DNA from: Candidatus Krumholzibacteriota bacterium
GTDB lineage: Bacteria; Krumholzibacteriota; Krumholzibacteriia; LZORAL124-64-63
Length of the DNA: 64,000 nt
NCBI GenBank assembly: GCA_022711765.1
Contig: JAKLEB010000001.1
Span: 1,186-65,185 of the forward strand
Direction of reading: 5' to 3'
This document shows positions 20,457 through 45,186 of this stretch, one piece after another. The notes under the pieces are model-generated. The model did not search any database, had not been told where the DNA came from, and worked only from the letters and a program-made list of their open reading frames with translations. Every line of letters begins with the position of its first letter. The first letter of the stretch is position 1. The translations under genes and the position numbers were made by a program.

Positions 20457-20457
20457 C

Positions 20458-21012: not shown

Positions 21013-21081
21013 GGCGGCGCGCGGCGGCCGAGCGCCACCCTCGGCTTGCCAGGCGCCGGCCCCCGGCGTAAGGTCCGCGGC

Positions 21082-21603: not shown

Positions 21604-22979
21604 GACGGCTCGCCGCCGCGGACGGCTGCTACGGCGCCGCTCTGGTCACGATGCCGTTGATCGGCGTCGACCTGATCCGCCTCGCCGCCGGCCGTGATCT
21701 GGGACTGGGCCTGCAGCCGGCCTACCTGCTGCTCGCGGTCGCCTGGCTCCTGCGGCTGGTCTCGTCCCTCACGGCGGCGGGAGCGCGGGACCGCCGCCGT
21801 CACCGGGCGGCCGGGATCCGGCCGTGGTCGGGCTGGGCGCTCGCGGCCGTGGGCGCGGTCGCGCTGTCCAGTCTGGGTCTCGCGCTGGCGCCGGCGCCGC
21901 TGCTTCGCCACGAGGCGTGGCCGCGCTTCGCCAAGCAGGTCGCGCAGCTCGCGGTGATGGGCGCCTTCCTGGCCTATCCGGCGCTCTGGACCCGCGGCGG
22001 GCAGCGCTGGCGGTGGACCATGCGGCTGGTCGCCTGGACCACGGGACTCCAGCTGGTCTACGCGCTGGCCCAGGGGCTCGCGACGCGCGGCGACCTCGCC
22101 GCGCTGGCCGCCGTCGAGCGGATCGTCACGAGCAATCGCGCGATCCTCTCCGGATCGGACCGGCTGTACCTCGGCGGGTTCACGGACCTGCCGCGGCTGC
22201 GGGGGACCATGTGCGAGCCGCTGTACCTCGGCAGCTACCTCATCGGCGTGTTGCCCTGGCTGCTCTGGAGCGGCAGGCGCTGGCTGGCCGGCGCGACGGT
22301 CGCGGCGCTCCTGGCGACCTGGTCCCGGGGAGCGTGGGTCGCCGGCCTCGCCAGCCTCGGGCTGTTGATGGTCTGGCGTTGGCGCGCCGGGCTGCCTCGT
22401 CCGTCCCGCGGGACGCTCGGAGCCGCCGCCGCCGTGCTGGCGGCGGTCGCGGCCGGGCTGCTCGTCGTGTCGGGCCCGGATTCGCTCACCTGGCCGGTCC
22501 GCCGGCTCCTGCAGACGTTCGATCGGAGCGACTGGTCGAACCTGACCCGTTTTTACAGCGGACAGGCGGCGTGGCGGGCGTTCCTCGCGTCGCCGCTGGT
22601 CGGCGTCGGCTGGGGGCAGTTCCCCTACCACTTCTATGCGCTCGTGGATCTGCCGGGGCTCGAGAGCCAGTTCGCCTGGCCGGTCGTCAACAGCGCGCCG
22701 CTGCTGGTGCTGTGCGAGACGGGATTGATCGGGGCCGGCGTCTGGCTCGGCGCACTCGGGACGGCCTTCGCGCGCACGTGGCGGCGGCTGGCGGCGGACG
22801 CCCCGGCCGCGGCGCGCGCCAGGCTCGCCGCGGCGGCGGCGGCCAGTTGCGCCGTGGGCCTGCACCTGTGCATCTTTTCCCAGTACAACCTGCCGCACCT
22901 CTGGATCCTGCCGGGGCTCTGGCTCGCCGCGCTGGCGGAGGTCCGCATCGGTTCCGGCACGGAGAGACGACGGACGTGA
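21600..22979 (+). CDS. O-antigen ligase / Wzy_C-family polysaccharide polymerase-like membrane protein
   Basis: 459 aa from the ATG at 21600. About 10 predicted transmembrane helices. A Wzy_C-like core (WSRGAWVAGLASLGLL...GVGWGQFPYHF) is present. Confidence 0.65.
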   Translation: MRRLAAADGCYGAALVTMPLIGVDLIRLAAGRDLGLGLQPAYLLLAVAWLLRLVSSLTAAGARDRRRHRAAGIRPWSGWALAAVGAVALSSLGLALAPAPLLRHEAWPRFAKQVAQLAVMGAFLAYPALWTRGGQRWRWTMRLVAWTTGLQLVYALAQGLATRGDLAALAAVERIVTSNRAILSGSDRLYLGGFTDLPRLRGTMCEPLYLGSYLIGVLPWLLWSGRRWLAGATVAALLATWSRGAWVAGLASLGLLMVWRWRAGLPRPSRGTLGAAAAVLAAVAAGLLVVSGPDSLTWPVRRLLQTFDRSDWSNLTRFYSGQAAWRAFLASPLVGVGWGQFPYHFYALVDLPGLESQFAWPVVNSAPLLVLCETGLIGAGVWLGALGTAFARTWRRLAADAPAAARARLAAAAAASCAVGLHLCIFSQYNLPHLWILPGLWLAALAEVRIGSGTERRRT

Positions 22980-24112
22980 CGCGGCCACTGATCGTCCTCG
23001 ACGCCTTGTTGCTGCGCCCGCAACCCACGGGCGTCGGGCAGGCGATCATCGAATTGACGCGAGCGCTCGCCGCGACGGACCGGTGGTTCGATGTCGCGGT
23101 CCTCTGCACGAGCCCGGAACTCCTGCCGGAACTGGCGGACCGAGCCGGGTGGCGGATCGTCCCGTGTCCCGGCGCGGCCGGCGGCACCCTGCGCAAGGCC
23201 CTCTGGACGCAGCTGGTCATGCCGCGAGTGCTGCGCCGGCTGGGAGCGGATCTGCTGCATTGCCTGCAATTCGTCGCGCCGCTGCGGCTCCCGTGTCCGT
23301 CGGTCGTCACCGTGCACGATCTCGGCTATCTGCGGTTCCCGCACACGATCGAGCAGCCACGCCGCCTGTATTACGACCGGCTCGTCCCGGCGTCGTTGCG
23401 GCGGGCGCGCGCCGTGGTCTGCAACTCGCGGGCGACCGCCGACGACGTGGTGGCCTGGTTCCCGGAGGTCGCGAACCGGGTGTGGGTGACCCCCTTCGGC
23501 GCACCGCAGTGGGTCCGGGGCCGGCCGGTCGCGTCGCCGGATCGCGGAGGCGCCGCGCCGTTCCTCTTCGTGGGCACGCTGGAGCCGCGGAAGAACGTCG
23601 AGGGGTTGCTGCGCGCCTACGAGCGATTCGTCGCGGAACGGGAGGCTGCGGGCCTCGACTGCCCGCAGCTAGTGCTGGCCGGCGGCCGCGGCTGGCGGGA
23701 TACTGCGATCCGCAGCCGCCTGGCGGCGCTGGCAGCATCCGGCAGGGTGATCGTCGAGGACTACTGTAATCCAGACGAATTATGGCAACATTACAGCTTG
23801 GCGCGGGCCTTGCTCTTGCCCAGCTTGCACGAAGGCTTCGGATTCCCGATTCTGGAAGCCATGGCCGCAGGATTGCCGGTGTTGACCAGTGATCGCGGCG
23901 CGATGGCGGAAGTCGGGGGCGACGCGACTCTTCGAGTGGATCCGGAGGATCAACGGGCGCTGGTGGCGGGAATGCACCGGTTGACCGACGATGTGCGTCT
24001 CCGCCGGGACCTCGTCCGACGCGGACACGCCAACCTCGCCCGGTGGACCTGGGAGGAGACCGCCCGCACCACTGGCGAGGTCTACGAGCGCGTCCTCGGC
24101 GGGCATCGCTGA
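22976..24112 (+). CDS. Glycosyltransferase family 1
   Basis: 378 aa from a GTG overlapping the upstream stop. The GT1 C-terminal domain contains SLHEGFGFPILEAMAAGLPVLTSDRG (EX7E-like). Confidence 0.75.
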   Translation: MTRPLIVLDALLLRPQPTGVGQAIIELTRALAATDRWFDVAVLCTSPELLPELADRAGWRIVPCPGAAGGTLRKALWTQLVMPRVLRRLGADLLHCLQFVAPLRLPCPSVVTVHDLGYLRFPHTIEQPRRLYYDRLVPASLRRARAVVCNSRATADDVVAWFPEVANRVWVTPFGAPQWVRGRPVASPDRGGAAPFLFVGTLEPRKNVEGLLRAYERFVAEREAAGLDCPQLVLAGGRGWRDTAIRSRLAALAASGRVIVEDYCNPDELWQHYSLARALLLPSLHEGFGFPILEAMAAGLPVLTSDRGAMAEVGGDATLRVDPEDQRALVAGMHRLTDDVRLRRDLVRRGHANLARWTWEETARTTGEVYERVLGGHR

Positions 24113-24223
24113 GCCGGCGCGCGGCAACGAGTTCGGTGTTGCCCTCGCCGGGACGTTGCGATACTTTCGGGCAGCTCAGGAGAGCCACGCTTCGAGGGAA
24201 CGGAGCAAGCCAACGGAGGGGTC

Positions 24224-25522
24224 GTGGAGCGAGGGATCGTACCTCTGGTCAGTTTCGGCGTCGCATTCGTCATGTCGTGGTTGGTCCAGCCGCATTTTCG
24301 CAACCTGGGTTTTCTCACCGAAATCGTGGACCATCCCGGCGGCCGGCGGCCGCATCGCGAGCCGGTGCCGCGAACTGGCGGCATGGCGATCTTCATCTCC
24401 TTCTTCTGCGCGCTCTACTTCCTCGAGAATTTCGTGCTGCGCATGGCTCTGCCCTGGCCCTGGCTCATGATCCTGATCGGCGCCGGCCTGGTGATCCTGG
24501 CCCTGGGCGTCGGCGACGATCGGTTCGGCATCCACGCGGAGAAGAAGCTCTACGGCCAGCTGATCATCATCCTCGGCCTCATGCTGCTCGGGCAGCGGTT
24601 CGAATCCGTGACGCTTCCCGGCCTCGGCCGCGTCGAGCTCGGCGGCTGGTCCTGGCCGTTCACCCTTTTCTGGTACCTGGGCTTCATCAACTCGATGAAC
24701 CTCATCGACGGCCTTGATGGCCTCGCGAGCGGGATCAGCGTCCTCGCGTCCCTGTTCCTGGCGGTCCTGGCGCTCGCCGCCGGAGAAGCGACGTCGGCGC
24801 TCCTGGCGACGACCCTGGCCGGGTCGACGATGGCCTTCCTCTACTGGAACGTCAGCAGTCGCAAGATCTTCCTGGGCGATTCGGGGAGCATGTGGATGGG
24901 CCTCGTCCTGGCGACCCTCATGCTCAACCTGAGCCGCAACGCCGCCGTCCCGCTGCCCGTGCTCCTGGCGCCCATGACCGTGCCGATCTGGGACACGGCG
25001 ACCACGATCGTCCGCCGCTATCGTCAGCGGACCTCGATCTTCCAGGCGGACGACAACCACTTGCACCACCGTCTCGTCCGGCTCGGCTTCAGTCCCGCGC
25101 GGGCCGTCGCCGCGCTGCTCCTGGTGACGGGCGGCTCGGGCCTCTTCGCGCTCAGTGACTTCCTGGACTCCGCCTGGCTCGGCCTGCCGGCCATGGCGGC
25201 GTGGATGGGCGCCGCCCAGCTGGGGGCCCTCCAGCACCTGAGGAACCGGCACACGGGTTGGGACCTTTTCTCGGAAGTCTCGTACGCGCTGGGGTTCGAC
25301 GACGGGCTCGTCGACCGGACGGGTCTGGTGGATCGTCGCGTGGCCGAGGTCATCGATCTGCAGGCGGCCCGCGGACCCCTCCGGCCGGTCCAGAAAGTCG
25401 CGGGCGGCGAGCTGGCGATCATCCCGGACGATGACGAGGGCGTCGCGAAGTCCAGGCCGGCCCGGATGTCGGAAGGGGCGGACGCGAATGTCGTTTTCCC
25501 CACTTCCCGCGACCTTCATTGA
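24224..25522 (+). CDS. Polyprenyl-phosphate N-acetylhexosamine-1-phosphate transferase (WecA/MraY family, GT4 fold family) with C-terminal extension
   Basis: 432 aa, with multiple transmembrane helices, a DD-x-x-G motif (GVGDDRFG) and NLIDGLDGLASG. About 100 aa of non-membrane C-terminal extension lie beyond the usual length. Confidence 0.8.
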   Translation: MERGIVPLVSFGVAFVMSWLVQPHFRNLGFLTEIVDHPGGRRPHREPVPRTGGMAIFISFFCALYFLENFVLRMALPWPWLMILIGAGLVILALGVGDDRFGIHAEKKLYGQLIIILGLMLLGQRFESVTLPGLGRVELGGWSWPFTLFWYLGFINSMNLIDGLDGLASGISVLASLFLAVLALAAGEATSALLATTLAGSTMAFLYWNVSSRKIFLGDSGSMWMGLVLATLMLNLSRNAAVPLPVLLAPMTVPIWDTATTIVRRYRQRTSIFQADDNHLHHRLVRLGFSPARAVAALLLVTGGSGLFALSDFLDSAWLGLPAMAAWMGAAQLGALQHLRNRHTGWDLFSEVSYALGFDDGLVDRTGLVDRRVAEVIDLQAARGPLRPVQKVAGGELAIIPDDDEGVAKSRPARMSEGADANVVFPTSRDLH

Positions 25523-26150
25523 CGACCTGCGGCGATCGTCGGCCGCCGGCGTGCTCGAGCTCGGCAGCGGCGACGGCTCCTTCACTGCGGTGATCCGCGA
25601 GCTCGGACGGGAGCCGCTCACCGTGGACCGCAGCTGCTGGCCGGCGGGTTCGCGACCGCGGATCCGCGGTGATGCGCTCGCACCGCCGTTGCGGCGGCGC
25701 TTCGACGTCGTGGTCGCCGCGAACCTCCTGCGCCAGCTGTGGCGTGACCTTCCGGCGGCCGGGCCGGGCGTCTGGCGGGACCTCGTCGATCGCGACGGCA
25801 GCCTCTGGATCTTCGAGGACGAGCCGCTCGCGTCGCCGCGGGCGGCCCGGAACTATCGCGACCTGCAGGCAATGCTGGCCCAGGCCGGCGCGACTGGCAG
25901 GCGCGAGCTGGTGCCGCTGGCCGAGTTCCGGCGCCGTCGCCGGGTGTGGGCGTGGAACGGCGAATGGACGTGCGGACAGGCCGTGAACGAATGGGAGGTC
26001 GCGGCCGCCGGCGTGATCGCCTGGCTCGCGTCCGGGGATCCGGAGCCGGCCACCGAGATGGCTTGTTTGATGCAACGGATCCAGCGCGACGGTCTCAGTT
26101 ACGGATGCTACTGGTGGGCGCGCTGGCGCCCGGAGGCAGCGGGATGTTGA
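25488..26150 (+). CDS. Putative class-I SAM-dependent methyltransferase
   Basis: 220 aa from an internal ATG, with a glycine-rich VLELGSGDGSF motif. Overlaps the previous gene by 35 nt. Weak assignment. Confidence 0.4.
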   Translation: MSFSPLPATFIDDLRRSSAAGVLELGSGDGSFTAVIRELGREPLTVDRSCWPAGSRPRIRGDALAPPLRRRFDVVVAANLLRQLWRDLPAAGPGVWRDLVDRDGSLWIFEDEPLASPRAARNYRDLQAMLAQAGATGRRELVPLAEFRRRRRVWAWNGEWTCGQAVNEWEVAAAGVIAWLASGDPEPATEMACLMQRIQRDGLSYGCYWWARWRPEAAGC

Positions 26151-27478
26151 GGCGACTCGCCGTCACGGTCGCGATCGGGGGCGCCGCGCTCGTCGTCGCA
26201 GCGGGCGTGCTGTGGGGTCGCAGTCCGGCGGCAGTCGAGTGGCGCAGAGCCCGCACGATCTGCATCGAGAGCGACGACTGGGGCCTCTGCGGATTCCTGC
26301 CCGACACGTCCGCGCTCGCCGGGCTGGACCGCAAGGTCCTGGCTCCCGGCCAGTTCCCCGAGGTCTACTGGCACTCGACGCTCGAGGATAGCGCCATGGT
26401 CGCCGAGCTGGCGGCGGTCTTCGCCGCTCACCGCGGCCGCGACGGACTGCCGGCGGTGCTTCAGCCGAACTACATCCTCGCGTCGTTCTCGCTGGAGCCG
26501 GACCCGCTCGACTCGACGGATCGCTGGATCGTGCGGGACATGCCGGCGACTCCACCGGGGTACGACCGGCCAGGGCTGTGGCACGCGGTGCGCGACGCGC
26601 AACAGGCCGGCGTCTGGCACCCGGAGCTCCACGGGCGCTGGCATTACGATCCGGAACTCCGCCGGCGGCGCGCGAGCGAGGAGCCGGCGGTTCGCGCGGC
26701 AGCGGCCCTGCAGATCCTGCCGTTCCCCGAGAGCGAACGCGCCTGGGAGCTCGGTGCGTGGCGGGACCTCGCCGTGATCGCTGACGAGCTGGACCGCAAT
26801 CTCGTCGTGTTCCGGCAGCTCTTCGGCTACTCGCCGCGTTCGGTGATCGCGCCCGACTACGTCTGGAATGACCGGCACGAGCAGCTCTGGTGCGAGCGGG
26901 ATCTGCGCGTGATCCAGGGCCAGCGGCAGCAGAGGCAGAGTCGCTGGCGGGGCCTCTCGGGTCGCCTGCTCAAGGTCTGGCATCGCGCATGGACGCGGTG
27001 GTATCGGCAGGACCGGGTCTACCTCGACCGCAACTGCCTGTTCGAGCCGGTCCAGCAGCATGCGCCCAGGGCGATCACCGAGGCGGCTGTGCGGGATGTC
27101 GACGCCGCCTGGCGGCGGCGCGAAGCCGCGATAGTCGAAGCCCACCGGATCAATTTCGCCCACCTGGATCCCGCCGTGCACGAGCTGGGCCGTGCCGAGC
27201 TCGCCCACCTGCTCGGCGAGTTCGCGACCCGTGGGCCGCTCTTCGTGGTCGACAGTGAGCTGGCGGATCTGCAGCGGCGAGGCACGTCCTGGGTGGTCCG
27301 CGGCGACCGGATCGTGGTCCGGAACCTGACCCGCGCGCGCCGCCTGGTCGTCGTCCCGCCGGAGGCGGCGGCCGCCGGTCAAGAGCGCGAGCCGTCGGCC
27401 GGGGCCGAGCCTCTCGTCCTGGTTCTCGAACCTGGCGAGACCAGGACCTTGCCCGCCGATGGCTCGATGAGCAACTAA
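26144..27478 (+). CDS. Hypothetical exported protein in glycan cluster
   Basis: 444 aa from the ATG at 26144, which overlaps the upstream stop. N-terminal transmembrane/signal segment (LAVTVAIGGAALVVAAGVLWG). No confident family. Confidence 0.5.
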   Translation: MLRRLAVTVAIGGAALVVAAGVLWGRSPAAVEWRRARTICIESDDWGLCGFLPDTSALAGLDRKVLAPGQFPEVYWHSTLEDSAMVAELAAVFAAHRGRDGLPAVLQPNYILASFSLEPDPLDSTDRWIVRDMPATPPGYDRPGLWHAVRDAQQAGVWHPELHGRWHYDPELRRRRASEEPAVRAAAALQILPFPESERAWELGAWRDLAVIADELDRNLVVFRQLFGYSPRSVIAPDYVWNDRHEQLWCERDLRVIQGQRQQRQSRWRGLSGRLLKVWHRAWTRWYRQDRVYLDRNCLFEPVQQHAPRAITEAAVRDVDAAWRRREAAIVEAHRINFAHLDPAVHELGRAELAHLLGEFATRGPLFVVDSELADLQRRGTSWVVRGDRIVVRNLTRARRLVVVPPEAAAAGQEREPSAGAEPLVLVLEPGETRTLPADGSMSN

Positions 27479-27491
27479 AAAACTCCTCAAT

Positions 27492-27520
27492 TAGACTCAT
27501 TTCTTTATCTATGGTAAGAT
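27492..27520 (+). promoter_or_regulatory. AT-rich sigma70-like promoter TAGACT-N17-TAAGAT for giant gene copy 1
   Basis: AT-rich island (AAAAAACTCCTCAATTAGACTCATTTCTTTATCTATGGTAAGATCA) in otherwise 70% GC DNA. The -35 hexamer is at 27492-27497 and the -10 at 27515-27520, with a 17-nt spacer. Confidence 0.5.
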
Positions 27521-27609
27521 CATCTCCTTGGTTTGCCCAGGAACGGTCGTCACCGGGCGATCGCGTCTACGGCTCGATCCGCATGCACGCGCGACCCAGG
27601 AGGATAGGC

Positions 27610-30600
27610 ATGAGCCGCCGCATGGTCGTAACCCCGCTCATCGTCATCGCCGTCTCGCTCAGTTCCCTGGTCCTGGCCGCGCAGGGTCCTGTGCTCTACG
27701 AAGGAACGTTGGAACCGGATCAGTTCGCCTGGACCGAGCTGGCCGATGGGTCGTACCGGCTCGACCTCGGCGGTGGTCGCTCGCTCGGGGTCACGGACCT
27801 GGCGGACCTGCCGGCGATCGACCTCCTGTTGCTCGTGCCCGCCGACCTGGCGATCGCCGGCGTCGAGGTCGAACCGCTCGCGATCCGCTCGATCGTTGCG
27901 CCCGGCCGCCTGGCGCTGGCGGGCGCCCTGGCGTCGAGCGCCGGCGACCTCCTGCCGCAGCGTGACCTGGAGCCGGCCGGTGGCATGTTCCCGCCGAGCT
28001 GGGGCGCCTTCGGCGGCGTTCACAGCTGGCGGGGCTACCGGTTGCTCGCCGTGACCGTGCACCCGGCGCGCCTGCGCGACGGCGATCCCGGGTCGCCCGC
28101 GCGCCTGGACGTGCTGGAGCGGTTCGCGATCCGCGCGGTCTCGACCGGCGCGCCCGCCGCGAGCCCGCCCCTCGCTCGCGAGCGTCTCGTCGCCGGGGAG
28201 CGCAGCCGCCTGGAACGGCTGTTGCGCCCGCTCGTGGCGAATCCGGAGGCGGTGACGAGCTATCAGCGCGAGGACGGGGCTGCGCTCGACAAGTCGGGCG
28301 CTCCCTTCCTGCCCACGCCCAACCCCAGCCTCGAAGGAAGCGGGATCCGGTACCTGATCGTGACGTCGGCGGCGCTGGCGCCCGAGTTCCAGCGCCTGGC
28401 GGACCACCGCACGCGCCAGGGATTGCCGGCGCTCGTGGTGACGCGCGAGTGGATCTCCGCGAATTTCCGTCGCGGCGTCGATTTCCAGGAGACCCTGAGG
28501 ATGTTCCTGCAGGACGCGTACGCCAAGTGGGGCGTGGAGTACCTGCTGCTCGGCGGGGACACGGAGATCGTGCCGACCCGCACGATCCGGAGCAACTTCT
28601 ATCCGTACGGCGGGCACACGGACATCCCGACCGACACGTACTACGCCGCGCTCGATGGGAACTGGGGCGCCGACGGCGACGGCTGGCTCGGCGAGCCGTA
28701 CGTCACGGAGGGCAACCCCGGCGACAACGCCGATCTCGCGCCGGAACTCGCCGTGGCGCGGGCGCCGGTGCGCAGCCTCCTCGGCGCCCAGCAGTTCGTG
28801 GACAAGGTGCTGGGCTACGAGGCGACGCCGGCCGGCGCGCTCTGGGCGAACCGGATCCTCTTCGCCGCGGAGGTGCTCTTCCCGTCGCCCTGGCATCCGG
28901 GCGAACCCATCACGCTCGATGGCGCCCAGTACGCGCAGACCTTGATCGACACCATCATCGAGTCGTGCTCGACCATGTCCTATGTGCGCATGTACGAGAC
29001 CGCGCAGCTCTATCCGCGCGACGCTCCGCTGACCCGCGCGGCCCTGATCGACTCGCTCAACACCGGCCACTACGGCCACGTGGACCAGTTCGGCCACGGG
29101 CACTACTTCAACATGTCGGTCGGCGACGCGAACTTCACGGTGTCCGACGCGGACGCTCTCCACAATCCGCATCACTTCCTGCTCTTCGCCGTGAACTGCG
29201 CGTCGGGCGCGTTCGATTTCTCGTGCTTGATGGAGCGGTTCGTCGAGAATCCCGACGGCGGCGCGATCGTCTCGGTCAGCGCCGCGCGTGAAGCATTCCC
29301 CTCCAATTCCTTCGGCTACCAGTCGACGTTCTACGGCGCCATGGTCTGCGACGGCGTGCTCCGCGTCCCCGACGCGTTCAACGTGGCGCGCCTGCAGTTC
29401 ATCGGCAACACGTCGCGCAACACGGTCGACCGCTGGACGCAGCTCAATGCGGCGATCATCGGCGATCCCGCGACCGGCATCTGGTGCGGTCCGCCGCTGG
29501 CGCCCTCGATCACGGCGCCCGCCAATCTCGCCGTTGGCGAGCAGACGGTGCAGGTCCAGGTCGTGGCGGGCGGTCGGCCGGCGGTCGGCGCCGACGTCTG
29601 TCTGGTCAAGGACGGCGAGACGTACGCGTGGGCCGTCACCGATCCGGCGGGTCAGGCGTCGCTGACGATCGTCCCGCAGACGGCGGGCACGGTCACCTTG
29701 ACGGTTTCGGGCGCCAACCTCGTGCGGACGACCCGCACGATCCCGGTCGCCGGCAGCGCGACGTACGTGGCCATGACCGGATTCGGGATCGGCGACCAGT
29801 CGCCCAACGGCAACGGCAACGGCGTCGCCGAGGCCGGCGAGACGATTTCGCTGGCGCTGCAGTTGCAGGATCTCGGCGGCGGCGGCGCGACCGGGCTGAA
29901 TGTCACGTTGACCAGCGACGATCCGCAGCTCGTGGTGCTCGACGGCACGGCGAGCGCGGGCAACATCGCGCCGGGCGGATCGACCACCAACCTGGACCCG
30001 CTCGTGGTCAAGCCGCAGACCATCATGCGTGACGGTTTGCGCATCGCGATGCGGATCGTCGTGACGGCGAACGGCGGCGGCAGCTGGGTCAGCAACGGCC
30101 TGCTCGAGGTGCGGGTGCCCGAGCCGGAGGTCGCGCGCCTCGTCGTCGACGACTCCGTCTACGGCGACGGCGACGGCGTGGCGGAGAGCAACGAACGCCT
30201 GGTCCTGCGTCCGTACGTGAAGAACTACGGCAGCGGACGACTCGACCAGCTCGTCGCGCAGGTGACGAACGCGGCGGCGGGGGTCACGGTGCACAGCGCC
30301 TTCGCGTTCTACGCCAACGTCGACCTGCTGGAGGAGGAGACCTACCAGTCGGGCGAGCTCTCGGTGACCCTGGCCAACATCGGGCAGCTCCAGCCGTGCC
30401 GCGTCGATTTCCAGGACAACTACGGGCGCACCTTCACCCAGCCGCTCGAATTCAACGAGCCGGCGGCTCCCGGCCTGCCGGCCGCCGACGCGACGATCGC
30501 GTCGGACGCGATCGCGCTGCGCTGGGACCCGGTCGGCGGGGCGGCGACCCTGGGCTACCACGTCTATCGCGCGGCGGCCGAGGCGGGGCCGTTCAGCCGG

Positions 30601-32406
30601 GCCAACCCCGACCTGCTGCAGGGGATCGCGTACTTCGAGGACCGCGGACTCATGCAGCTGACGCCGTACTGGTACAAGGTCACCGCCGTGGACACGTTCC
30701 TGCAGGAGAGCGATTTCTCGCCGGTCGTGACCCAGGGGACCATGCCGCCCGAGCTCACCAATTTCCCGCTGGAGTTCCAGTTGCAGACGAGCGGCCACAT
30801 CGCCGTGGGGGACATCGACGGGGACGGGCGGTTGGAGATCGTCCTCGCGTCGGACGAGGTCTACGCGTGGAACGAGGACGGCAGCGAGCTCGTCGACGGG
30901 GACAACGACGCCCAGACCACCGGTCCTTTGACGGGAGTCGACGGTCAGTTCGAGCCGTCCGGCGTGGTCCTGGCGGACCTCGACGGTGAGCCGGGGCTGG
31001 AGATCATCGCGAGCGAGCGCCTGAACGCGCGCCAGATCCACGTCTTCAGGGCGGACGGCAGCGAGCTTCCGGGCTGGCCGCGGACCATGCAGAACTCCTG
31101 GAACTGGGCGACGCCGGCGGTCGGCGACGTCGACGGCGACGGCGACAACGAGGTCGTGGTCAACGATACGGCCGGGCGCACGTTCGTCTGGCACCATACC
31201 GGAGTCGAGCTGCGCGACGGGGACAGCAACCCCGCCACCAACGGCGTGTTCGTCGATCGCGACGAGAGCTGGGGCTACTCGTCGCCCGCGCTCTTCGACC
31301 TGGACGGGGACGGCGCCTGCGAGATCATCTTCGGCACGCGCTACTTCACGCCGGGCAACGCGCTGCTCGCGTATCGTTACAACGGCAGTCAGGCGCAGAA
31401 CTTCCCGTTCACGACGGGCAGCGCGCAGATCATCTGCGCGCCGGCGATCGCCGATCTCGATCGGGACGGCGACAAGGAGATCGTCTTCTTCACGACCGCT
31501 CACTACCTCTACGCGATCCACCACAACGCGGCGGCGTACCCGGGCTTCCCGGTCTTCTTCAACACGAACTGGGACGACTCTCCGGGCCCCAGCCCGGCGG
31601 TCGGCAATTTCGACGGCGACAACGACCTGGAGATCCTCTGGCCGGTCAACGGCGGTTCGTTCCGCCTGGACCTGATCGCGGTCGACACGGGCCGCTTCGA
31701 CGGCACGACCGGCGACATCATGGCGGGCTGGCCGGTGCAGCTGCCGGCGAACTCGGAGGGCAGTCCGGTCGTGGGCGACATCAACGGCGACGGCCTCTCG
31801 GATGTCGTGCAGCCCGTCGGCAGCGACGAGACCGAAACGCCGGACCTCATCTTCGCCGTCGACCACGCGGGAGAGGGGATCCCGGGCTTCCCGATCCGGC
31901 TCGACGGGATCCCGCGCTCGACGCCGGTGATCTGCGACCTGGATCTCGACGGCGACGTGGAGGTCGTGTACGGGTCGTGGGACCGGTTGCTCCACGCCTG
32001 GGACCTGCCGGCGCCCTTCGACGCCGCGAACGTGCCGTGGCCGACCTTCCACGGCAATCCGCAGCGGACCGGCGTCGCCGTGCAGGTGAGCATCACCGGC
32101 GTCGACGATCCGGTGGTGCCGAGCATCTTCACCGTCATGCCGCCGCACCCCAATCCGTTCAATCCGGTCACCACTCTGCGCCTCTACGTGGCGCCGGGAC
32201 CGGACCGCCGGCTCGACGTGGCGGTGTACGACCTGCGGGGCCGCCGGATCCGGCAGCTGCACGCGGGCGACGCCGCGGCGGGGTGGCACGACCTGACCTG
32301 GGACGGGCGCGACGACACGGGTCGCGGCCAGGCCAGCGGCGTGTACTTCGTCCGCGCGCAGCAGGCGGCAGAGTCGCGGACCTTCAAGCTGACGCTCGTG
32401 AAATAG
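27610..32406 (+). CDS. Giant secreted protein, copy 1: gingipain-like C25 cysteine peptidase + CARDB/Ig-like + FN3 + 7x FG-GAP beta-propeller + T9SS C-terminal sorting domain
   Basis: 1598 aa from the ATG at 27610, after an AGGAGG ribosome-binding site. Signal peptide MSRRMVVTPLIVIAVSLSSLVLAAQG. The C25-like catalytic region shows His (QFGHGHYFNMSVGD) and Cys (LLFAVNCASGAFD) in a gingipain-like arrangement. NGNGNGVAEAGETISL CARDB-like repeats are present. An FN3 domain is present (LRWDPVGG...YHVYRAA...YWYKVTAVD). There are seven FG-GAP-type calcium-binding repeats (GDIDGDGRLEIV, GDVDGDGDNEVVV, FDLDGDGACEIIFG, ADLDRDGDKEIVF, GNFDGDNDLEILW, GDINGDGLSDVV, CDLDLDGDVEVVYG). The C-terminus (PNPFNPVTTLRLYV...VAVYDLRGRRIRQL...WDGRDDTGRGQASGVYFVRAQ...RTFKLTLVK) matches the T9SS type-A sorting domain. 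Confidence 0.8.
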   Translation: MSRRMVVTPLIVIAVSLSSLVLAAQGPVLYEGTLEPDQFAWTELADGSYRLDLGGGRSLGVTDLADLPAIDLLLLVPADLAIAGVEVEPLAIRSIVAPGRLALAGALASSAGDLLPQRDLEPAGGMFPPSWGAFGGVHSWRGYRLLAVTVHPARLRDGDPGSPARLDVLERFAIRAVSTGAPAASPPLARERLVAGERSRLERLLRPLVANPEAVTSYQREDGAALDKSGAPFLPTPNPSLEGSGIRYLIVTSAALAPEFQRLADHRTRQGLPALVVTREWISANFRRGVDFQETLRMFLQDAYAKWGVEYLLLGGDTEIVPTRTIRSNFYPYGGHTDIPTDTYYAALDGNWGADGDGWLGEPYVTEGNPGDNADLAPELAVARAPVRSLLGAQQFVDKVLGYEATPAGALWANRILFAAEVLFPSPWHPGEPITLDGAQYAQTLIDTIIESCSTMSYVRMYETAQLYPRDAPLTRAALIDSLNTGHYGHVDQFGHGHYFNMSVGDANFTVSDADALHNPHHFLLFAVNCASGAFDFSCLMERFVENPDGGAIVSVSAAREAFPSNSFGYQSTFYGAMVCDGVLRVPDAFNVARLQFIGNTSRNTVDRWTQLNAAIIGDPATGIWCGPPLAPSITAPANLAVGEQTVQVQVVAGGRPAVGADVCLVKDGETYAWAVTDPAGQASLTIVPQTAGTVTLTVSGANLVRTTRTIPVAGSATYVAMTGFGIGDQSPNGNGNGVAEAGETISLALQLQDLGGGGATGLNVTLTSDDPQLVVLDGTASAGNIAPGGSTTNLDPLVVKPQTIMRDGLRIAMRIVVTANGGGSWVSNGLLEVRVPEPEVARLVVDDSVYGDGDGVAESNERLVLRPYVKNYGSGRLDQLVAQVTNAAAGVTVHSAFAFYANVDLLEEETYQSGELSVTLANIGQLQPCRVDFQDNYGRTFTQPLEFNEPAAPGLPAADATIASDAIALRWDPVGGAATLGYHVYRAAAEAGPFSRANPDLLQGIAYFEDRGLMQLTPYWYKVTAVDTFLQESDFSPVVTQGTMPPELTNFPLEFQLQTSGHIAVGDIDGDGRLEIVLASDEVYAWNEDGSELVDGDNDAQTTGPLTGVDGQFEPSGVVLADLDGEPGLEIIASERLNARQIHVFRADGSELPGWPRTMQNSWNWATPAVGDVDGDGDNEVVVNDTAGRTFVWHHTGVELRDGDSNPATNGVFVDRDESWGYSSPALFDLDGDGACEIIFGTRYFTPGNALLAYRYNGSQAQNFPFTTGSAQIICAPAIADLDRDGDKEIVFFTTAHYLYAIHHNAAAYPGFPVFFNTNWDDSPGPSPAVGNFDGDNDLEILWPVNGGSFRLDLIAVDTGRFDGTTGDIMAGWPVQLPANSEGSPVVGDINGDGLSDVVQPVGSDETETPDLIFAVDHAGEGIPGFPIRLDGIPRSTPVICDLDLDGDVEVVYGSWDRLLHAWDLPAPFDAANVPWPTFHGNPQRTGVAVQVSITGVDDPVVPSIFTVMPPHPNPFNPVTTLRLYVAPGPDRRLDVAVYDLRGRRIRQLHAGDAAAGWHDLTWDGRDDTGRGQASGVYFVRAQQAAESRTFKLTLVK

Positions 32407-32424
32407 GCGTCGGCTCGGAGCACA

Positions 32425-32460
32425 GCGCCGGGACCCGCCAGCGGCGGGCCCGGCGCTTCT
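32425..32460 (+). terminator. GC-rich stem-loop (putative intrinsic terminator) after copy 1
   Basis: GCGCCGGGaCCCGCC-agc-GGCGGGCCCGGCGC forms a 14-bp stem with one bulge. It is followed by TTCT, a weak U-tract. It is duplicated at 37600..37635. Confidence 0.4.
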
Positions 32461-32666
32461 GCGCGCGCCGACCCGTCCGGTCCGCTCGATCGCGAATCTG
32501 GGAGACCGGCCGGCGCTCGTGCTGGCGCCTACATGTGCTGACCGGTCTTGTCGGATCTCGCGGCGCGGGAGTTCTCGGGCGCCGGACGCTGCGACGCATA
32601 ATTCCGGAGAATACCGGGCTGATCGACCCTGTCGACGACTCCATTGGCAACTTCGATTCTCCTGAT

Positions 32667-32695
32667 TTGACTCGTTTCTTTATTTGTGGTAAGAT
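32667..32695 (+). promoter_or_regulatory. AT-rich sigma70-like promoter TTGACT-N17-TAAGAT for giant gene copy 2
   Basis: -35 TTGACT at 32667-32672, 17-nt spacer, -10 TAAGAT at 32690-32695. It is homologous to the copy-1 promoter but with a better -35 hexamer. Confidence 0.5.
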
Positions 32696-32784
32696 CATCT
32701 CCTTGGTTTGCCCAGGAACGGTCGTCACCGGGCGATCGCGTCTACGGCTCGATCCGCATGCACGCGCGACCCAGGAGGATAGGC

Positions 32785-35700
32785 ATGAGCCGCCGCATGG
32801 TCGTAACCCCGCTCATCGTCATCGCCGTCTCGCTCAGTTCCCTGGTCCTGGCCGCGCAGGGTCCTGTGCTCTACGAAGGAACGTTGGAACCGGATCAGTT
32901 CGCCTGGACCGAGCTGGCCGATGGGTCGTACCGGCTCGACCTCGGCGGTGGTCGCTCGCTCGGGGTCACGGACCTGGCGGACCTGCCGGCGATCGACCTC
33001 CTGTTGCTCGTGCCCGCCGACCTGGCGATCGCCGGCGTCGAGGTCGAACCGCTCGCGATCCGCTCGATCGTTGCGCCCGGCCGCCTGGCGCTGGCGGGCG
33101 CCCTGGCGTCGAGCGCCGGCGACCTCCTGCCGCAGCGTGACCTGGAGCCGGCCGGTGGCATGTTCCCGCCGAGCTGGGGCGCCTTCGGCGGCGTTCACAG
33201 CTGGCGGGGCTACCGGTTGCTCGCCGTGACCGTGCACCCGGCGCGCCTGCGCGACGGCGATCCCGGGTCGCCCGCGCGCCTGGACGTGCTGGAGCGGTTC
33301 GCGATCCGCGCGGTCTCGACCGGCGCGCCCGCCGCGAGCCCGCCCCTCGCTCGCGAGCGTCTCGTCGCCGGGGAGCGCAGCCGCCTGGAACGGCTGTTGC
33401 GCCCGCTCGTGGCGAATCCGGAGGCGGTGACGAGCTATCAGCGCGAGGACGGGGCTGCGCTCGACAAGTCGGGCGCTCCCTTCCTGCCCACGCCCAACCC
33501 CAGCCTCGAAGGAAGCGGGATCCGGTACCTGATCGTGACGTCGGCGGCGCTGGCGCCCGAGTTCCAGCGCCTGGCGGACCACCGCACGCGCCAGGGATTG
33601 CCGGCGCTCGTGGTGACGCGCGAGTGGATCTCCGCGAATTTCCGTCGCGGCGTCGATTTCCAGGAGACCCTGAGGATGTTCCTGCAGGACGCGTACGCCA
33701 AGTGGGGCGTGGAGTACCTGCTGCTCGGCGGGGACACGGAGATCGTGCCGACCCGCACGATCCGGAGCAACTTCTATCCGTACGGCGGGCACACGGACAT
33801 CCCGACCGACACGTACTACGCCGCGCTCGATGGGAACTGGGGCGCCGACGGCGACGGCTGGCTCGGCGAGCCGTACGTCACGGAGGGCAACCCCGGCGAC
33901 AACGCCGATCTCGCGCCGGAACTCGCCGTGGCGCGGGCGCCGGTGCGCAGCCTCCTCGGCGCCCAGCAGTTCGTGGACAAGGTGCTGGGCTACGAGGCGA
34001 CGCCGGCCGGCGCGCTCTGGGCGAACCGGATCCTCTTCGCCGCGGAGGTGCTCTTCCCGTCGCCCTGGCATCCGGGCGAACCCATCACGCTCGATGGCGC
34101 CCAGTACGCGCAGACCTTGATCGACACCATCATCGAGTCGTGCTCGACCATGTCCTATGTGCGCATGTACGAGACCGCGCAGCTCTATCCGCGCGACGCT
34201 CCGCTGACCCGCGCGGCCCTGATCGACTCGCTCAACACCGGCCACTACGGCCACGTGGACCAGTTCGGCCACGGGCACTACTTCAACATGTCGGTCGGCG
34301 ACGCGAACTTCACGGTGTCCGACGCGGACGCTCTCCACAATCCGCATCACTTCCTGCTCTTCGCCGTGAACTGCGCGTCGGGCGCGTTCGATTTCTCGTG
34401 CTTGATGGAGCGGTTCGTCGAGAATCCCGACGGCGGCGCGATCGTCTCGGTCAGCGCCGCGCGTGAAGCATTCCCCTCCAATTCCTTCGGCTACCAGTCG
34501 ACGTTCTACGGCGCCATGGTCTGCGACGGCGTGCTCCGCGTCCCCGACGCGTTCAACGTGGCGCGCCTGCAGTTCATCGGCAACACGTCGCGCAACACGG
34601 TCGACCGCTGGACGCAGCTCAATGCGGCGATCATCGGCGATCCCGCGACCGGCATCTGGTGCGGTCCGCCGCTGGCGCCCTCGATCACGGCGCCCGCCAA
34701 TCTCGCCGTTGGCGAGCAGACGGTGCAGGTCCAGGTCGTGGCGGGCGGTCGGCCGGCGGTCGGCGCCGACGTCTGTCTGGTCAAGGACGGCGAGACGTAC
34801 GCGTGGGCCGTCACCGATCCGGCGGGTCAGGCGTCGCTGACGATCGTCCCGCAGACGGCGGGCACGGTCACCTTGACGGTTTCGGGCGCCAACCTCGTGC
34901 GGACGACCCGCACGATCCCGGTCGCCGGCAGCGCGACGTACGTGGCCATGACCGGATTCGGGATCGGCGACCAGTCGCCCAACGGCAACGGCAACGGCGT
35001 CGCCGAGGCCGGCGAGACGATTTCGCTGGCGCTGCAGTTGCAGGATCTCGGCGGCGGCGGCGCGACCGGGCTGAATGTCACGTTGACCAGCGACGATCCG
35101 CAGCTCGTGGTGCTCGACGGCACGGCGAGCGCGGGCAACATCGCGCCGGGCGGATCGACCACCAACCTGGACCCGCTCGTGGTCAAGCCGCAGACCATCA
35201 TGCGTGACGGTTTGCGCATCGCGATGCGGATCGTCGTGACGGCGAACGGCGGCGGCAGCTGGGTCAGCAACGGCCTGCTCGAGGTGCGGGTGCCCGAGCC
35301 GGAGGTCGCGCGCCTCGTCGTCGACGACTCCGTCTACGGCGACGGCGACGGCGTGGCGGAGAGCAACGAACGCCTGGTCCTGCGTCCGTACGTGAAGAAC
35401 TACGGCAGCGGACGACTCGACCAGCTCGTCGCGCAGGTGACGAACGCGGCGGCGGGGGTCACGGTGCACAGCGCCTTCGCGTTCTACGCCAACGTCGACC
35501 TGCTGGAGGAGGAGACCTACCAGTCGGGCGAGCTCTCGGTGACCCTGGCCAACATCGGGCAGCTCCAGCCGTGCCGCGTCGATTTCCAGGACAACTACGG
35601 GCGCACCTTCACCCAGCCGCTCGAATTCAACGAGCCGGCGGCTCCCGGCCTGCCGGCCGCCGACGCGACGATCGCGTCGGACGCGATCGCGCTGCGCTGG

Positions 35701-37581
35701 GACCCGGTCGGCGGGGCGGCGACCCTGGGCTACCACGTCTATCGCGCGGCGGCCGAGGCGGGGCCGTTCAGCCGGGCCAACCCCGACCTGCTGCAGGGGA
35801 TCGCGTACTTCGAGGACCGCGGACTCATGCAGCTGACGCCGTACTGGTACAAGGTCACCGCCGTGGACACGTTCCTGCAGGAGAGCGATTTCTCGCCGGT
35901 CGTGACCCAGGGGACCATGCCGCCCGAGCTCACCAATTTCCCGCTGGAGTTCCAGTTGCAGACGAGCGGCCACATCGCCGTGGGGGACATCGACGGGGAC
36001 GGGCGGTTGGAGATCGTCCTCGCGTCGGACGAGGTCTACGCGTGGAACGAGGACGGCAGCGAGCTCGTCGACGGGGACAACGACGCCCAGACCACCGGTC
36101 CTTTGACGGGAGTCGACGGTCAGTTCGAGCCGTCCGGCGTGGTCCTGGCGGACCTCGACGGTGAGCCGGGGCTGGAGATCATCGCGAGCGAGCGCCTGAA
36201 CGCGCGCCAGATCCACGTCTTCAGGGCGGACGGCAGCGAGCTTCCGGGCTGGCCGCGGACCATGCAGAACTCCTGGAACTGGGCGACGCCGGCGGTCGGC
36301 GACGTCGACGGCGACGGCGACAACGAGGTCGTGGTCAACGATACGGCCGGGCGCACGTTCGTCTGGCACCATACCGGAGTCGAGCTGCGCGACGGGGACA
36401 GCAACCCCGCCACCAACGGCGTGTTCGTCGATCGCGACGAGAGCTGGGGCTACTCGTCGCCCGCGCTCTTCGACCTGGACGGGGACGGCGCCTGCGAGAT
36501 CATCTTCGGCACGCGCTACTTCACGCCGGGCAACGCGCTGCTCGCGTATCGTTACAACGGCAGTCAGGCGCAGAACTTCCCGTTCACGACGGGCAGCGCG
36601 CAGATCATCTGCGCGCCGGCGATCGCCGATCTCGATCGGGACGGCGACAAGGAGATCGTCTTCTTCACGACCGCTCACTACCTCTACGCGATCCACCACA
36701 ACGCGGCGGCGTACCCGGGCTTCCCGGTCTTCTTCAACACGAACTGGGACGACTCTCCGGGCCCCAGCCCGGCGGTCGGCAATTTCGACGGCGACAACGA
36801 CCTGGAGATCCTCTGGCCGGTCAACGGCGGTTCGTTCCGCCTGGACCTGATCGCGGTCGACACGGGCCGCTTCGACGGCACGACCGGCGACATCATGGCG
36901 GGCTGGCCGGTGCAGCTGCCGGCGAACTCGGAGGGCAGTCCGGTCGTGGGCGACATCAACGGCGACGGCCTCTCGGATGTCGTGCAGCCCGTCGGCAGCG
37001 ACGAGACCGAAACGCCGGACCTCATCTTCGCCGTCGACCACGCGGGAGAGGGGATCCCGGGCTTCCCGATCCGGCTCGACGGGATCCCGCGCTCGACGCC
37101 GGTGATCTGCGACCTGGATCTCGACGGCGACGTGGAGGTCGTGTACGGGTCGTGGGACCGGTTGCTCCACGCCTGGGACCTGCCGGCGCCCTTCGACGCC
37201 GCGAACGTGCCGTGGCCGACCTTCCACGGCAATCCGCAGCGGACCGGCGTCGCCGTGCAGGTGAGCATCACCGGCGTCGACGATCCGGTGGTGCCGAGCA
37301 TCTTCACCGTCATGCCGCCGCACCCCAATCCGTTCAATCCGGTCACCACTCTGCGCCTCTACGTGGCGCCGGGACCGGACCGCCGGCTCGACGTGGCGGT
37401 GTACGACCTGCGGGGCCGCCGGATCCGGCAGCTGCACGCGGGCGACGCCGCGGCGGGGTGGCACGACCTGACCTGGGACGGGCGCGACGACACGGGTCGC
37501 GGCCAGGCCAGCGGCGTGTACTTCGTCCGTGCGCAGCAGGCGGCAGAGTCGCGGACGTTCAAGCTGACGCTCGTGAAATAG
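32785..37581 (+). CDS. Giant secreted protein, copy 2 (identical protein): C25 peptidase + CARDB + FN3 + FG-GAP propeller + T9SS CTD
   Basis: 1598 aa. The protein is identical to copy 1. At the DNA level there are only two synonymous differences near the 3' end (CGC to CGT, ACC to ACG). Confidence 0.8.
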   Translation: MSRRMVVTPLIVIAVSLSSLVLAAQGPVLYEGTLEPDQFAWTELADGSYRLDLGGGRSLGVTDLADLPAIDLLLLVPADLAIAGVEVEPLAIRSIVAPGRLALAGALASSAGDLLPQRDLEPAGGMFPPSWGAFGGVHSWRGYRLLAVTVHPARLRDGDPGSPARLDVLERFAIRAVSTGAPAASPPLARERLVAGERSRLERLLRPLVANPEAVTSYQREDGAALDKSGAPFLPTPNPSLEGSGIRYLIVTSAALAPEFQRLADHRTRQGLPALVVTREWISANFRRGVDFQETLRMFLQDAYAKWGVEYLLLGGDTEIVPTRTIRSNFYPYGGHTDIPTDTYYAALDGNWGADGDGWLGEPYVTEGNPGDNADLAPELAVARAPVRSLLGAQQFVDKVLGYEATPAGALWANRILFAAEVLFPSPWHPGEPITLDGAQYAQTLIDTIIESCSTMSYVRMYETAQLYPRDAPLTRAALIDSLNTGHYGHVDQFGHGHYFNMSVGDANFTVSDADALHNPHHFLLFAVNCASGAFDFSCLMERFVENPDGGAIVSVSAAREAFPSNSFGYQSTFYGAMVCDGVLRVPDAFNVARLQFIGNTSRNTVDRWTQLNAAIIGDPATGIWCGPPLAPSITAPANLAVGEQTVQVQVVAGGRPAVGADVCLVKDGETYAWAVTDPAGQASLTIVPQTAGTVTLTVSGANLVRTTRTIPVAGSATYVAMTGFGIGDQSPNGNGNGVAEAGETISLALQLQDLGGGGATGLNVTLTSDDPQLVVLDGTASAGNIAPGGSTTNLDPLVVKPQTIMRDGLRIAMRIVVTANGGGSWVSNGLLEVRVPEPEVARLVVDDSVYGDGDGVAESNERLVLRPYVKNYGSGRLDQLVAQVTNAAAGVTVHSAFAFYANVDLLEEETYQSGELSVTLANIGQLQPCRVDFQDNYGRTFTQPLEFNEPAAPGLPAADATIASDAIALRWDPVGGAATLGYHVYRAAAEAGPFSRANPDLLQGIAYFEDRGLMQLTPYWYKVTAVDTFLQESDFSPVVTQGTMPPELTNFPLEFQLQTSGHIAVGDIDGDGRLEIVLASDEVYAWNEDGSELVDGDNDAQTTGPLTGVDGQFEPSGVVLADLDGEPGLEIIASERLNARQIHVFRADGSELPGWPRTMQNSWNWATPAVGDVDGDGDNEVVVNDTAGRTFVWHHTGVELRDGDSNPATNGVFVDRDESWGYSSPALFDLDGDGACEIIFGTRYFTPGNALLAYRYNGSQAQNFPFTTGSAQIICAPAIADLDRDGDKEIVFFTTAHYLYAIHHNAAAYPGFPVFFNTNWDDSPGPSPAVGNFDGDNDLEILWPVNGGSFRLDLIAVDTGRFDGTTGDIMAGWPVQLPANSEGSPVVGDINGDGLSDVVQPVGSDETETPDLIFAVDHAGEGIPGFPIRLDGIPRSTPVICDLDLDGDVEVVYGSWDRLLHAWDLPAPFDAANVPWPTFHGNPQRTGVAVQVSITGVDDPVVPSIFTVMPPHPNPFNPVTTLRLYVAPGPDRRLDVAVYDLRGRRIRQLHAGDAAAGWHDLTWDGRDDTGRGQASGVYFVRAQQAAESRTFKLTLVK

Positions 37582-37599
37582 GCGTCGGCTCGGAGCACA

Positions 37600-37635
37600 G
37601 CGCCGGGACCCGCCAGCGGCGGGCCCGGCGCTTCT
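37600..37635 (+). terminator. GC-rich stem-loop (putative intrinsic terminator) after copy 2
   Basis: Identical hairpin to 32425..32460. Confidence 0.4.
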
Positions 37636-37730
37636 GCGCGCGCTCCCCGCGAACGCGACCGATCGCCTCATCACTTGACCGGGATCGCCGCGGCCACCTA
37701 GCATCACGGCAAGCCGAGCGAGGAGTTCGC

Positions 37731-45154: not shown

Positions 45155-45186
45155 CGCGGAGTCGCCGGTCCGCGGAAGGGAAGTCC

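Follow-up and report, generated by a model that had tools for sequence, protein, structure and literature searches.

Tandem genes for gingipain-type C25 cysteine peptidases with an FG-GAP propeller and a predicted type IX sorting domain in a Krumholzibacteriota genome

The stretch of DNA analysed here (the window, 64,000 nucleotides from a Candidatus Krumholzibacteriota genome of 70% GC) encodes on its forward strand a protein of 1,598 residues that belongs to the C25 family of cysteine peptidases, along with the gingipains RgpB, RgpA and Kgp of Porphyromonas gingivalis, and it carries the gene for this protein twice, in tandem (copies A and B). The window is chromosomal, with housekeeping genes for GroEL, GlnA, Lon, LexA and a SurA-like protein. 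Copy A occupies an open frame that extends from 27511 to 32406 (+ strand), starts at ATG 27610 and ends with its stop codon at 32406; the same start had been proposed by the first-pass annotation, a model's reading of the letters, and the AGGAGG at 27598-27603 upholds it. On the basis that its codon bias (GC at third codon positions, 0.93) fits the 70%-GC genome and that the AGGAGG precedes ATG 27610, we take copy A to be a real gene, in a neighbourhood with a local GC content of 0.69-0.70. The encoded protein is identical to two NCBI entries, HRY41323.1 and HRY41324.1, both labelled 'C25 family cysteine peptidase [Candidatus Krumholzibacteria bacterium]'. The long open frame that runs opposite copy A (27550..32289) is a shadow of the kind usual at high GC. 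The parts of copy A, with type IX secretion system abbreviated to T9SS, are as follows.

27598..27603, + strand: Shine-Dalgarno sequence AGGAGG of copy A, 6-nt spacer to ATG 27610
27610..32406, + strand: copy A coding sequence, C25 peptidase / FG-GAP propeller / T9SS C-terminal domain (profile hidden Markov models, HMMs; NCBI match)
27610..27684, + strand: Sec-type signal peptide, residues 1-25, MSRRMVVTPLIVIAVSLSSLVLAAQ (read from the sequence)
27685..28284, + strand: N-terminal beta-sandwich prodomain, residues ~26-225 (Foldseek match to the RgpB prodomain)
28351..29475, + strand: C25 catalytic domain, residues 248-622 (PF01364)
29494..29760, + strand: immunoglobulin (Ig)-like domain right after the catalytic domain, residues 629-717 (structure matches; as in RgpB and Kgp)
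29767..30444, + strand: two beta-sandwich domains, residues 720-835 and 839-945 (AlphaFold, predicted local distance difference test score, pLDDT, ~90)
30457..30768, + strand: FN3 domain, residues ~950-1053 (family profile against the PDB)
30787..32079, + strand: eight-bladed FG-GAP/VCBS-type beta-propeller, residues ~1060-1490 (eight DxDxDG-like motifs)
32119..32403, + strand: T9SS type-A C-terminal sorting domain, residues 1504-1598 (TIGR04183, FlgD_ig)

Several lines of evidence identify the catalytic domain. First, the Pfam profile Peptidase_C25 (PF01364) scored 196.8 bits (cutoff 23; E 8.5e-58) and aligned over positions 1-372 of its 374. Second, the His (GHGHYF) and Cys (NCASG) dyad that the first-pass annotation had singled out for its gingipain-like spacing coincides with the active site of RgpB: His496 (codon 29095-29097) and Cys530 (codon 29197-29199) lie in the motifs GH496G and NC530, which align to GH211G and AC244 of RgpB (His211/Cys244), and are separated by 34 residues, compared to 33 in RgpB. 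Third, His496, Cys530, Gly495, Gly497, Asn529 and Glu421 were invariant in all 64 sequences of an alignment of homologues with 36-75% identity. Finally, we used two AlphaFold models, one of the N-terminal and one of the C-terminal half of the protein (mean pLDDT 90.5 and 90.6, respectively). The former predicted a caspase-haemoglobinase alpha/beta fold followed by an Ig-like domain, and Foldseek returned RgpB as its best PDB match (1cvr, E 5e-23, TMt 0.82; 4ief_D, TMt 0.85), with Kgp (4rbm) at TMt 0.77 and PorU (E 7e-16) behind RgpB. The caspase-like fold that the first-pass annotation had expected is thus borne out at TMt 0.77-0.85. The RgpB catalytic and Ig domains together are covered by the model at TMt 0.82-0.85, the profile alignment extends to RgpB residue 432, and the Pfam model for the Ig-like domain (PF03785; cutoff 25) fell slightly short with 22.9 bits.

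The region in front of the catalytic domain had been described as a pro-region, and its first ~225 residues indeed match the RgpB prodomain by structure (chains 4ief_E/C/A/G, E 2e-7 to 5e-7, TMt 0.56-0.63), followed by a conserved loop and helices (residues 178-247) in which Arg190 is invariant and Arg192 nearly so. By fold, this domain is a gingipain-type prodomain, and by analogy its role would be inhibitory. The preceding signal peptide (MSRRMVVTPLIVIAVSLSSLVLAAQG) was read by eye rather than with a dedicated predictor; homologues have a comparable hydrophobic N-terminus, and in the AlphaFold model the region forms a helix (residues 9-20) of low pLDDT. A glutamine follows the predicted cleavage site (LAA|QG), in keeping with the 'Q-rule' of Bacteroidetes cargo (N-terminal Gln after cleavage), but the residue is not conserved in homologues and we dropped this argument.

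The modules between the catalytic and C-terminal domains differ in part from what had been deduced from the letters. Of the CARDB-like Ig domains proposed there, the Ig-like domain after the catalytic domain and two predicted beta-sandwiches stand, whereas the CARDB label lacks HMM support: no Pfam match to CARDB (PF07705) emerged at E <= 10 when residues 713-837 and 834-949 were searched in isolation. In NCBIfam, the beta-sandwich region partially matched stretches from other secreted peptidases (TIGR03900, E 6e-9). The proposed FN3 domain likewise had no Pfam fn3 match, either in the full protein or in the isolated middle domains at E <= 10, yet the family profile retrieved FN3 domains from the PDB (RPTP-F 6tpw, E 2.1e-8; 3mpc, E 1.6e-6; titin), in support of the original call. 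In the propeller, the FG-GAP assignment holds (PF13517 with 71.4 bits in six stretches; PF01839 with 35.4 bits), whereas the blades number eight instead of the seven first counted and the resemblance is closer to BamB or Bap1 than to integrin. Taken together, the non-catalytic modules have Bap1, integrin alpha, SiiE and invasin as structural neighbours.

At the C-terminus, TIGR04183 scored 24.8 bits against a cutoff of 23, a marginal pass, and FlgD_ig scored 36-39 bits against a cutoff of 27 (39.1 bits and E 7.6e-10 in one search). The domain follows a linker (residues 1491-1503; pLDDT <50 at model residues 535-541) and is modelled as a compact beta-sandwich with strands at model residues 561-636 of 638 (pLDDT ~90). 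Its motif, comprising PNPFNP, G1544, W1564-x-G and G1577-x-Y1579, is invariant across the family, which we regard as good evidence that the domain is a functional sorting signal.

Copy A is not alone at this locus. The first-pass annotation overlooked that a tandem copy B follows it, with an identical protein of 1,598 residues, in an open frame of 1,631 codons (32686..37581). The features that define the duplication are listed here.

27492..27520, + strand: AT-rich, promoter-like element belonging to copy A, TAGACT-17-TAAGAT; TG precedes the -10 hexamer (read from the sequence)
32425..32456, + strand: GC-rich terminator-like hairpin after the copy A stop, then TTCT; inside the repeat
32469..32664, no strand: unique spacer of 196 bp between copies A and B
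32667..32695, + strand: sigma-70-like promoter of copy B, TTGACT-17-TAAGAT, extended -10 TG, 9/12 matches
32785..37581, + strand: copy B coding sequence, 1,598 residues, protein identical to that of copy A (pairwise comparison)

The repeat units run from 27490 to 32468 (copy A) and from 32665 to 37643 (copy B), at an offset of 5,175 bp, and span the whole gene together with its promoter-proximal region and terminator hairpin, so that each copy has its own promoter-like element, strong Shine-Dalgarno sequence and terminator-like hairpin. The copy A promoter-like element agrees with the consensus at 8/12 positions and appears to be a weaker, diverged homologue of the copy B element; a promoter consensus scan, which reported three sites versus 0.6 expected from shuffles, did not flag it. 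RNAfold gave -45.7 kcal/mol for positions 32408-32470 around the copy A hairpin, whose counterpart in copy B begins at 37600, and a simple terminator scan made no call at 32425..32456. Over the coding sequence the copies differ at two positions only, both synonymous (32355 and 32382), whereas the ~45 bp upstream of the near-identical stretch can be aligned between them and have yet diverged. The spacer does not significantly resemble either flank of the tandem pair.

To judge whether the duplication is genuine, we compared the window with four public versions of the locus. The repeat-spacer-repeat junction is the same in all four public records, which represent at least three separate assemblies, and the tandem pair is present in ENA ERZ795055 NODE_1 (2.06 Mb), in ERZ761563 NODE_12 (equivalent to GCA_035454465.1) and in JGI 3300025715 (2.16 Mb). 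In addition, three sequence variants of the C25 protein each have consecutive NCBI accessions. On these grounds, we conclude that the tandem arrangement is real. It would be an artefact of assembly from a single gene, or would conceal true copies more diverged than those displayed, only under a scenario that we rate as very unlikely. That scenario draws on the SPAdes-style NODE names of the public contigs with record names and on the fact that short reads cannot phase a 5-kb repeat. Moreover, the interiors of the copies are identical within each assembly, and wherever assemblies differ from one another, both copies show the variant at the corresponding site (30762/35937 and 31779/36954 are examples), as if one graph edge had been traversed twice, with copy-specific differences confined to the ~115 nt nearest the unique 3' flank. 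Against it, a junction with a 196-bp spacer that recurs in separate assemblies arises only from at least two tandem copies, the homologous but diverged promoter-proximal 45 bp are not a product of an assembler, and relatives possess tandem pairs that have diverged to 36-43% identity. The interior identity of copies A and B reflects either gene conversion or short-read collapse of the repeat; as collapse explains the shared variants equally well, we do not claim gene conversion or concerted evolution.

The window matches none of the fetched public records exactly. Relative to ERZ795055 NODE_1 it has nine changes within 30 nt at 29397-29426 and again at 34572-34601, and in both copies the cluster alters five residues of the catalytic domain, from QYIGIASTNTADR to QFIGNTSRNTVDR. 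It looks like a recombination tract or a strain variant.

The first-pass annotation had regarded the joining of a gingipain module to a propeller as unusual, a view that the databases do not sustain. More than 120 clusters (at 90% identity) contain orthologues that are ~1,590-1,625 residues long, share their Pfam domains and are 37-75% identical, and the few clusters with a source name are mostly labelled Krumholzibacteria. Relatives are encoded in 451 stretches of GTDB species genomes: full-length ones in metagenome-assembled genomes labelled Krumholzibacteriota, Latescibacteria and Eisenbacteria, weaker ones in Marinimicrobia and WOR-3, and partial matches in Zixibacteria, Bacteroidales and others. 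Both NCBI and JGI already annotate the architecture, at JGI as 'Peptidase family C25/FG-GAP-like repeat/FlgD Ig-like domain', and other names for orthologues from the Fibrobacterota-Chlorobiota-Bacteroidota (FCB) superphylum are 'VCBS repeat-containing protein' and 'T9SS type A sorting domain-containing protein'. The proteins so annotated are true orthologues that differ in nothing essential, and the window genes are members of their family. Judged by sequence, the fusion of C25 peptidase, propeller and C-terminal domain is a common, already annotated and uncharacterised architecture of uncultured FCB phyla.

Tandem duplication recurs within this family. Among the relatives' loci (numbered with the prefix L), tandem pairs occur in L008 (copies 43% identical), L010 (36%), L018, L020, L021 and L022, while L031 (Latescibacteria chromosome OY970173.1) and L037 (Eisenbacteria) have three tandem C25-propeller paralogues apiece. 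In a neighbour-joining tree, the first- and second-position copies of L008, L010, L021 and L022 form two old paralogue clades, L018 and L020 reflect a separate old duplication, and the window copies are zero-distance sisters whose nearest relatives (L003, L011 and L006) are single-copy. From this placement we conclude that duplication is recurrent and that the duplication in the window species, to which the near-identical pair is specific, is recent or homogenised. A second C25 gene in the genome of L009/L063 encodes 519 residues and was rejected as a PorU candidate.

All paralogues examined, including both members of the old pairs, retain the GHG and NC catalytic motifs, which bears on the notion that these proteins might be catalytically silent adhesins or S-layer-like surface proteins that merely retained the C25 fold. 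In favour of such a role, ~60% of the mature protein lies outside the catalytic part, in beta-sandwiches and a propeller whose structural neighbours (Bap1, integrin alpha, SiiE and invasin) are adhesin-like. Conservation of the motifs in paralogues that separated long ago, along with active-site residues that are invariant in 64 sequences at 36-75% identity and hence indicate selection on the active site, makes this notion exceedingly improbable.

The tandem genes are preceded by an operon-like block with a predicted role in envelope glycans.

19383..27478, + strand: upstream operon-like block (Pfam/NCBIfam; several stop and start codons overlap)

In order, the block encodes a ParA-like ATPase with a CBM48 module, two small proteins of unknown function, a Wzy_C protein (an O-antigen ligase/polymerase-like membrane protein), a family 4 glycosyltransferase (GT4), a WecA/MraY-like protein (Glycos_transf_4), a methyltransferase-like protein of 220 residues and a membrane-anchored protein of 444 residues. 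The order from Wzy_C through GT4, WecA, the methyltransferase-like and the 444-residue protein to C25 is kept in ~17 loci, down to 38% C25 identity, and the order of the block persists even with different downstream genes (L008, L021, L022 and L010). By sequence, the C25 gene thus appears as an orthologue that is conserved across Krumholzibacteriota just downstream of an envelope-glycan operon and repeatedly duplicated in tandem.

On the basis of these findings, we consider it fairly probable that the C25 genes encode zymogens of gingipain-type cysteine endopeptidases (MEROPS C25, clan CD) that are exported by a T9SS and serve as surface protease/adhesins. Its secretion, its processing and attachment to the surface, and its activity and specificity as a protease are all inferred by analogy with RgpB and Kgp of P. 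gingivalis, from which every step of the following pathway is taken. The Sec signal peptide would direct the protein to the periplasm, where the type-A C-terminal domain would route it through the T9SS; this domain would then be cut off at the flexible linker and the protein released or anchored at the surface, possibly on a glycolipid as in the case of gingipains. The gingipain-like prodomain would hold the His496/Cys530 site latent until it is cleaved away, and the beta-sandwiches, FN3 domain and calcium-type propeller most likely bind substrate, matrix or glycan. The paralogue expansion to pairs and triples in several lineages, which is typical of secreted or surface cargo, favours such cargo over single-copy machinery.

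Comparison with the gingipains (1CVR, 4IEF and 4RBM) underpins this interpretation. They share the order of signal peptide, prodomain, caspase-like domain, Ig domain, adhesin modules (RgpA and Kgp) and T9SS C-terminal domain, with TMt values of 0.77-0.85 for the catalytic and Ig domains and ~0.6 for the prodomain and with a dyad spaced by 33-34 residues. By contrast, sequence identity amounts to only 17-19%, and where gingipains carry haemagglutinin/cleaved-adhesin domains the window protein combines a pair of beta-sandwiches with an FN3 domain and an FG-GAP propeller of eight blades. The hosts also differ, the gingipain host being an oral member of the Bacteroidia and the window host a high-GC environmental Krumholzibacteria lineage. 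The claim that a gingipain-type plan exists in a high-GC lineage outside the Bacteroidia is supported by the HMM matches, the invariant dyad and the confident models. Another known relative in form, the eight-bladed propellers of BamB type and of the Vibrio cholerae biofilm matrix proteins Bap1/RbmC (6MLT), is unlike the window propeller in that the latter is a module of a T9SS-tagged protease.

Several observations weigh against this interpretation. First, TIGR04183 passes its cutoff by only 1.8 bits and Pfam Por_Secre_tail (PF18962) scored 17.6 bits, below its cutoff of 27. Second, none of the ~45 genes scanned in the window encodes T9SS machinery (sprA, porV, porU or gldK/L/M/N), and an HMM built on the C-terminal domain of the family matched only the proteins of copies A and B there. 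Third, Asp163, the S1 residue of RgpB (Asp516 in Kgp), has no evident counterpart: in the profile alignment it lies within an insertion that faces a variable position of the family, in an ambiguous region aligned without superposition, and neither Asp437 (60/64) nor the invariant Glu421 nearby can be assigned to it from the alignment. As a clear conserved counterpart is lacking in the profile alignment, we make no call for Arg or Lys specificity. Fourth, the strict conservation of length, architecture and position beside the glycan operon is more suggestive of a housekeeping envelope component than of a nutritional protease. Finally, our literature searches on C25 with FG-GAP and T9SS found no papers and no experimental work on any family member. 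Searches on Krumholzibacteriota and type IX secretion were likewise empty, and T9SS is not a topic of the papers in which Krumholzibacteriota appear. On the supporting side, a recent T9SS paper notes that several non-Bacteroidota phyla of the FCB group may have the system (PMC11285876).

The conserved position beside the glycan genes also lends itself to another explanation, in which the protein unites a PorU-like C-terminal signal peptidase/sortase with a PorZ-like propeller and would couple T9SS cargo to a glycolipid made by the WecA/GT4/Wzy_C operon. PorU (6za2) is the best single-sequence PDB match (E 3e-8), the NCBIfam PorU model matches the C25 region (E 2.5e-26), PorZ (5m11; propellers and C-terminal domain) is among the Foldseek matches of the C-terminal half (E 4.8e-9), and the synteny of Wzy_C, GT4, WecA, methyltransferase and 444-residue protein down to 38% identity, even with differing downstream genes, as well as the phylum-wide conservation of length and architecture, would fit such machinery. 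Like the window protein, PorU (6ZA2; NF033707) has a C25 core and a T9SS C-terminal domain. Its N-terminal architecture is different, though, and the PorU equivalog NF033707 attained only 91.7 bits against a cutoff of 420 and aligned solely at profile positions 365-730, the catalytic core. RgpB ranks above PorU in profile and structure searches, and a gingipain-type prodomain is present here. PorU latency is reportedly intermolecular and independent of a prodomain. Many genomes encode two or three diverged tandem paralogues, unlike the single-copy gene expected of PorU, and the window family has no porV-like neighbour: PorV as an identity for the 444-residue protein directly upstream was rejected on account of its N-terminal membrane anchor, the lack of a family match and the lack of any sign of a barrel. 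The TM-score of the PorZ match is low (0.15). Weighing both sides, we regard the PorU/PorZ explanation as unlikely. The bolder conjecture that C25-propeller proteins are the Krumholzibacteriota counterpart of the Bacteroidota attachment complex, with a PorU-like transpeptidase and a PorZ-like glycan-presenting propeller in a single polypeptide, strikes us as quite unlikely; if it were true, the adjacent operon with WecA, GT4, Wzy_C, methyltransferase and the 444-residue protein would make the anchoring glycolipid and paralogue pairs would specialise for different cargo or glycans.

The family extends a picture of gingipain-type proteases and T9SS cargo processing that is known almost wholly from Porphyromonas and Flavobacterium. 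The full gingipain plan is conserved in uncultured high-GC FCB phyla with another adhesin set, built on an eight-bladed calcium-type propeller, and more than 100 diverse sequences along with confident models offer a resource for the study of C25 specificity and latency outside oral pathogens. The fixed site behind an envelope-glycan operon and the repeated duplication hint at a link between T9SS cargo and surface-glycan synthesis. The gene itself is ordinary and correctly annotatable, and its value lies in the family rather than in the locus.

Downstream of the tandem pair lies a gene whose product had been proposed to capture the released peptides.

37731..39371, + strand: orphan family-5 solute-binding lipoprotein, lipobox VAGC (PF00496, E 2.4e-81)

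It had been placed next to copy A, whose end is 5.3 kb away; its actual neighbour is copy B. There are no permease or ATPase genes nearby, and all NCBIfam equivalogs scored below their cutoffs (Opp4A, 153 versus 650; NikA, 126 versus 393), so that no ligand is defined. Most close relatives have the gene behind their last C25 copy, and the distant L008 and L021 lack it there; it is syntenic with the C25 gene in many relatives, yet the same is true of PfkB and LexA. Capture of released peptides by this protein is therefore best treated as conjecture. Overall, the first-pass annotation is partly confirmed, its observation being largely right, with errors or omissions on the number of blades, on CARDB, on which copy the solute-binding gene adjoins and on the second copy, and its interpretation is partly supported.

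Other genes around the pair deserve brief mention. The ParA/MinD-type ATPase (AAA_31; 19383-20456) that heads the glycan operon has a C-terminal CBM48/AMPK glycogen-binding module, an unusual domain combination that is kept in relatives at 41-71% identity. The 444-residue protein (26144-27478), with its N-terminal membrane anchor, is always directly upstream of the Krumholzibacteria C25 gene (34-62% identity) and had no Pfam, NCBIfam or PDB match; a NodB-like deacetylase motif in it was discerned by eye only, had no tool support and is not claimed. Beyond the solute-binding gene, positions 39472-40053 encode a protein of 193 residues that may be nucleoid-associated: its middle is rich in Lys, Ala and Arg and resembles histone H1, and its C-terminal part weakly matches HARE-HTH (E 9e-4). 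Finally, the segments 45124-50234 and 51072-53338 encode three GT9 heptosyltransferase-like proteins, a PMT_2-like membrane glycosyltransferase and a Bac_transf sugar transferase, and the region around the C25 genes is thus rich in lipopolysaccharide and surface-polysaccharide functions.

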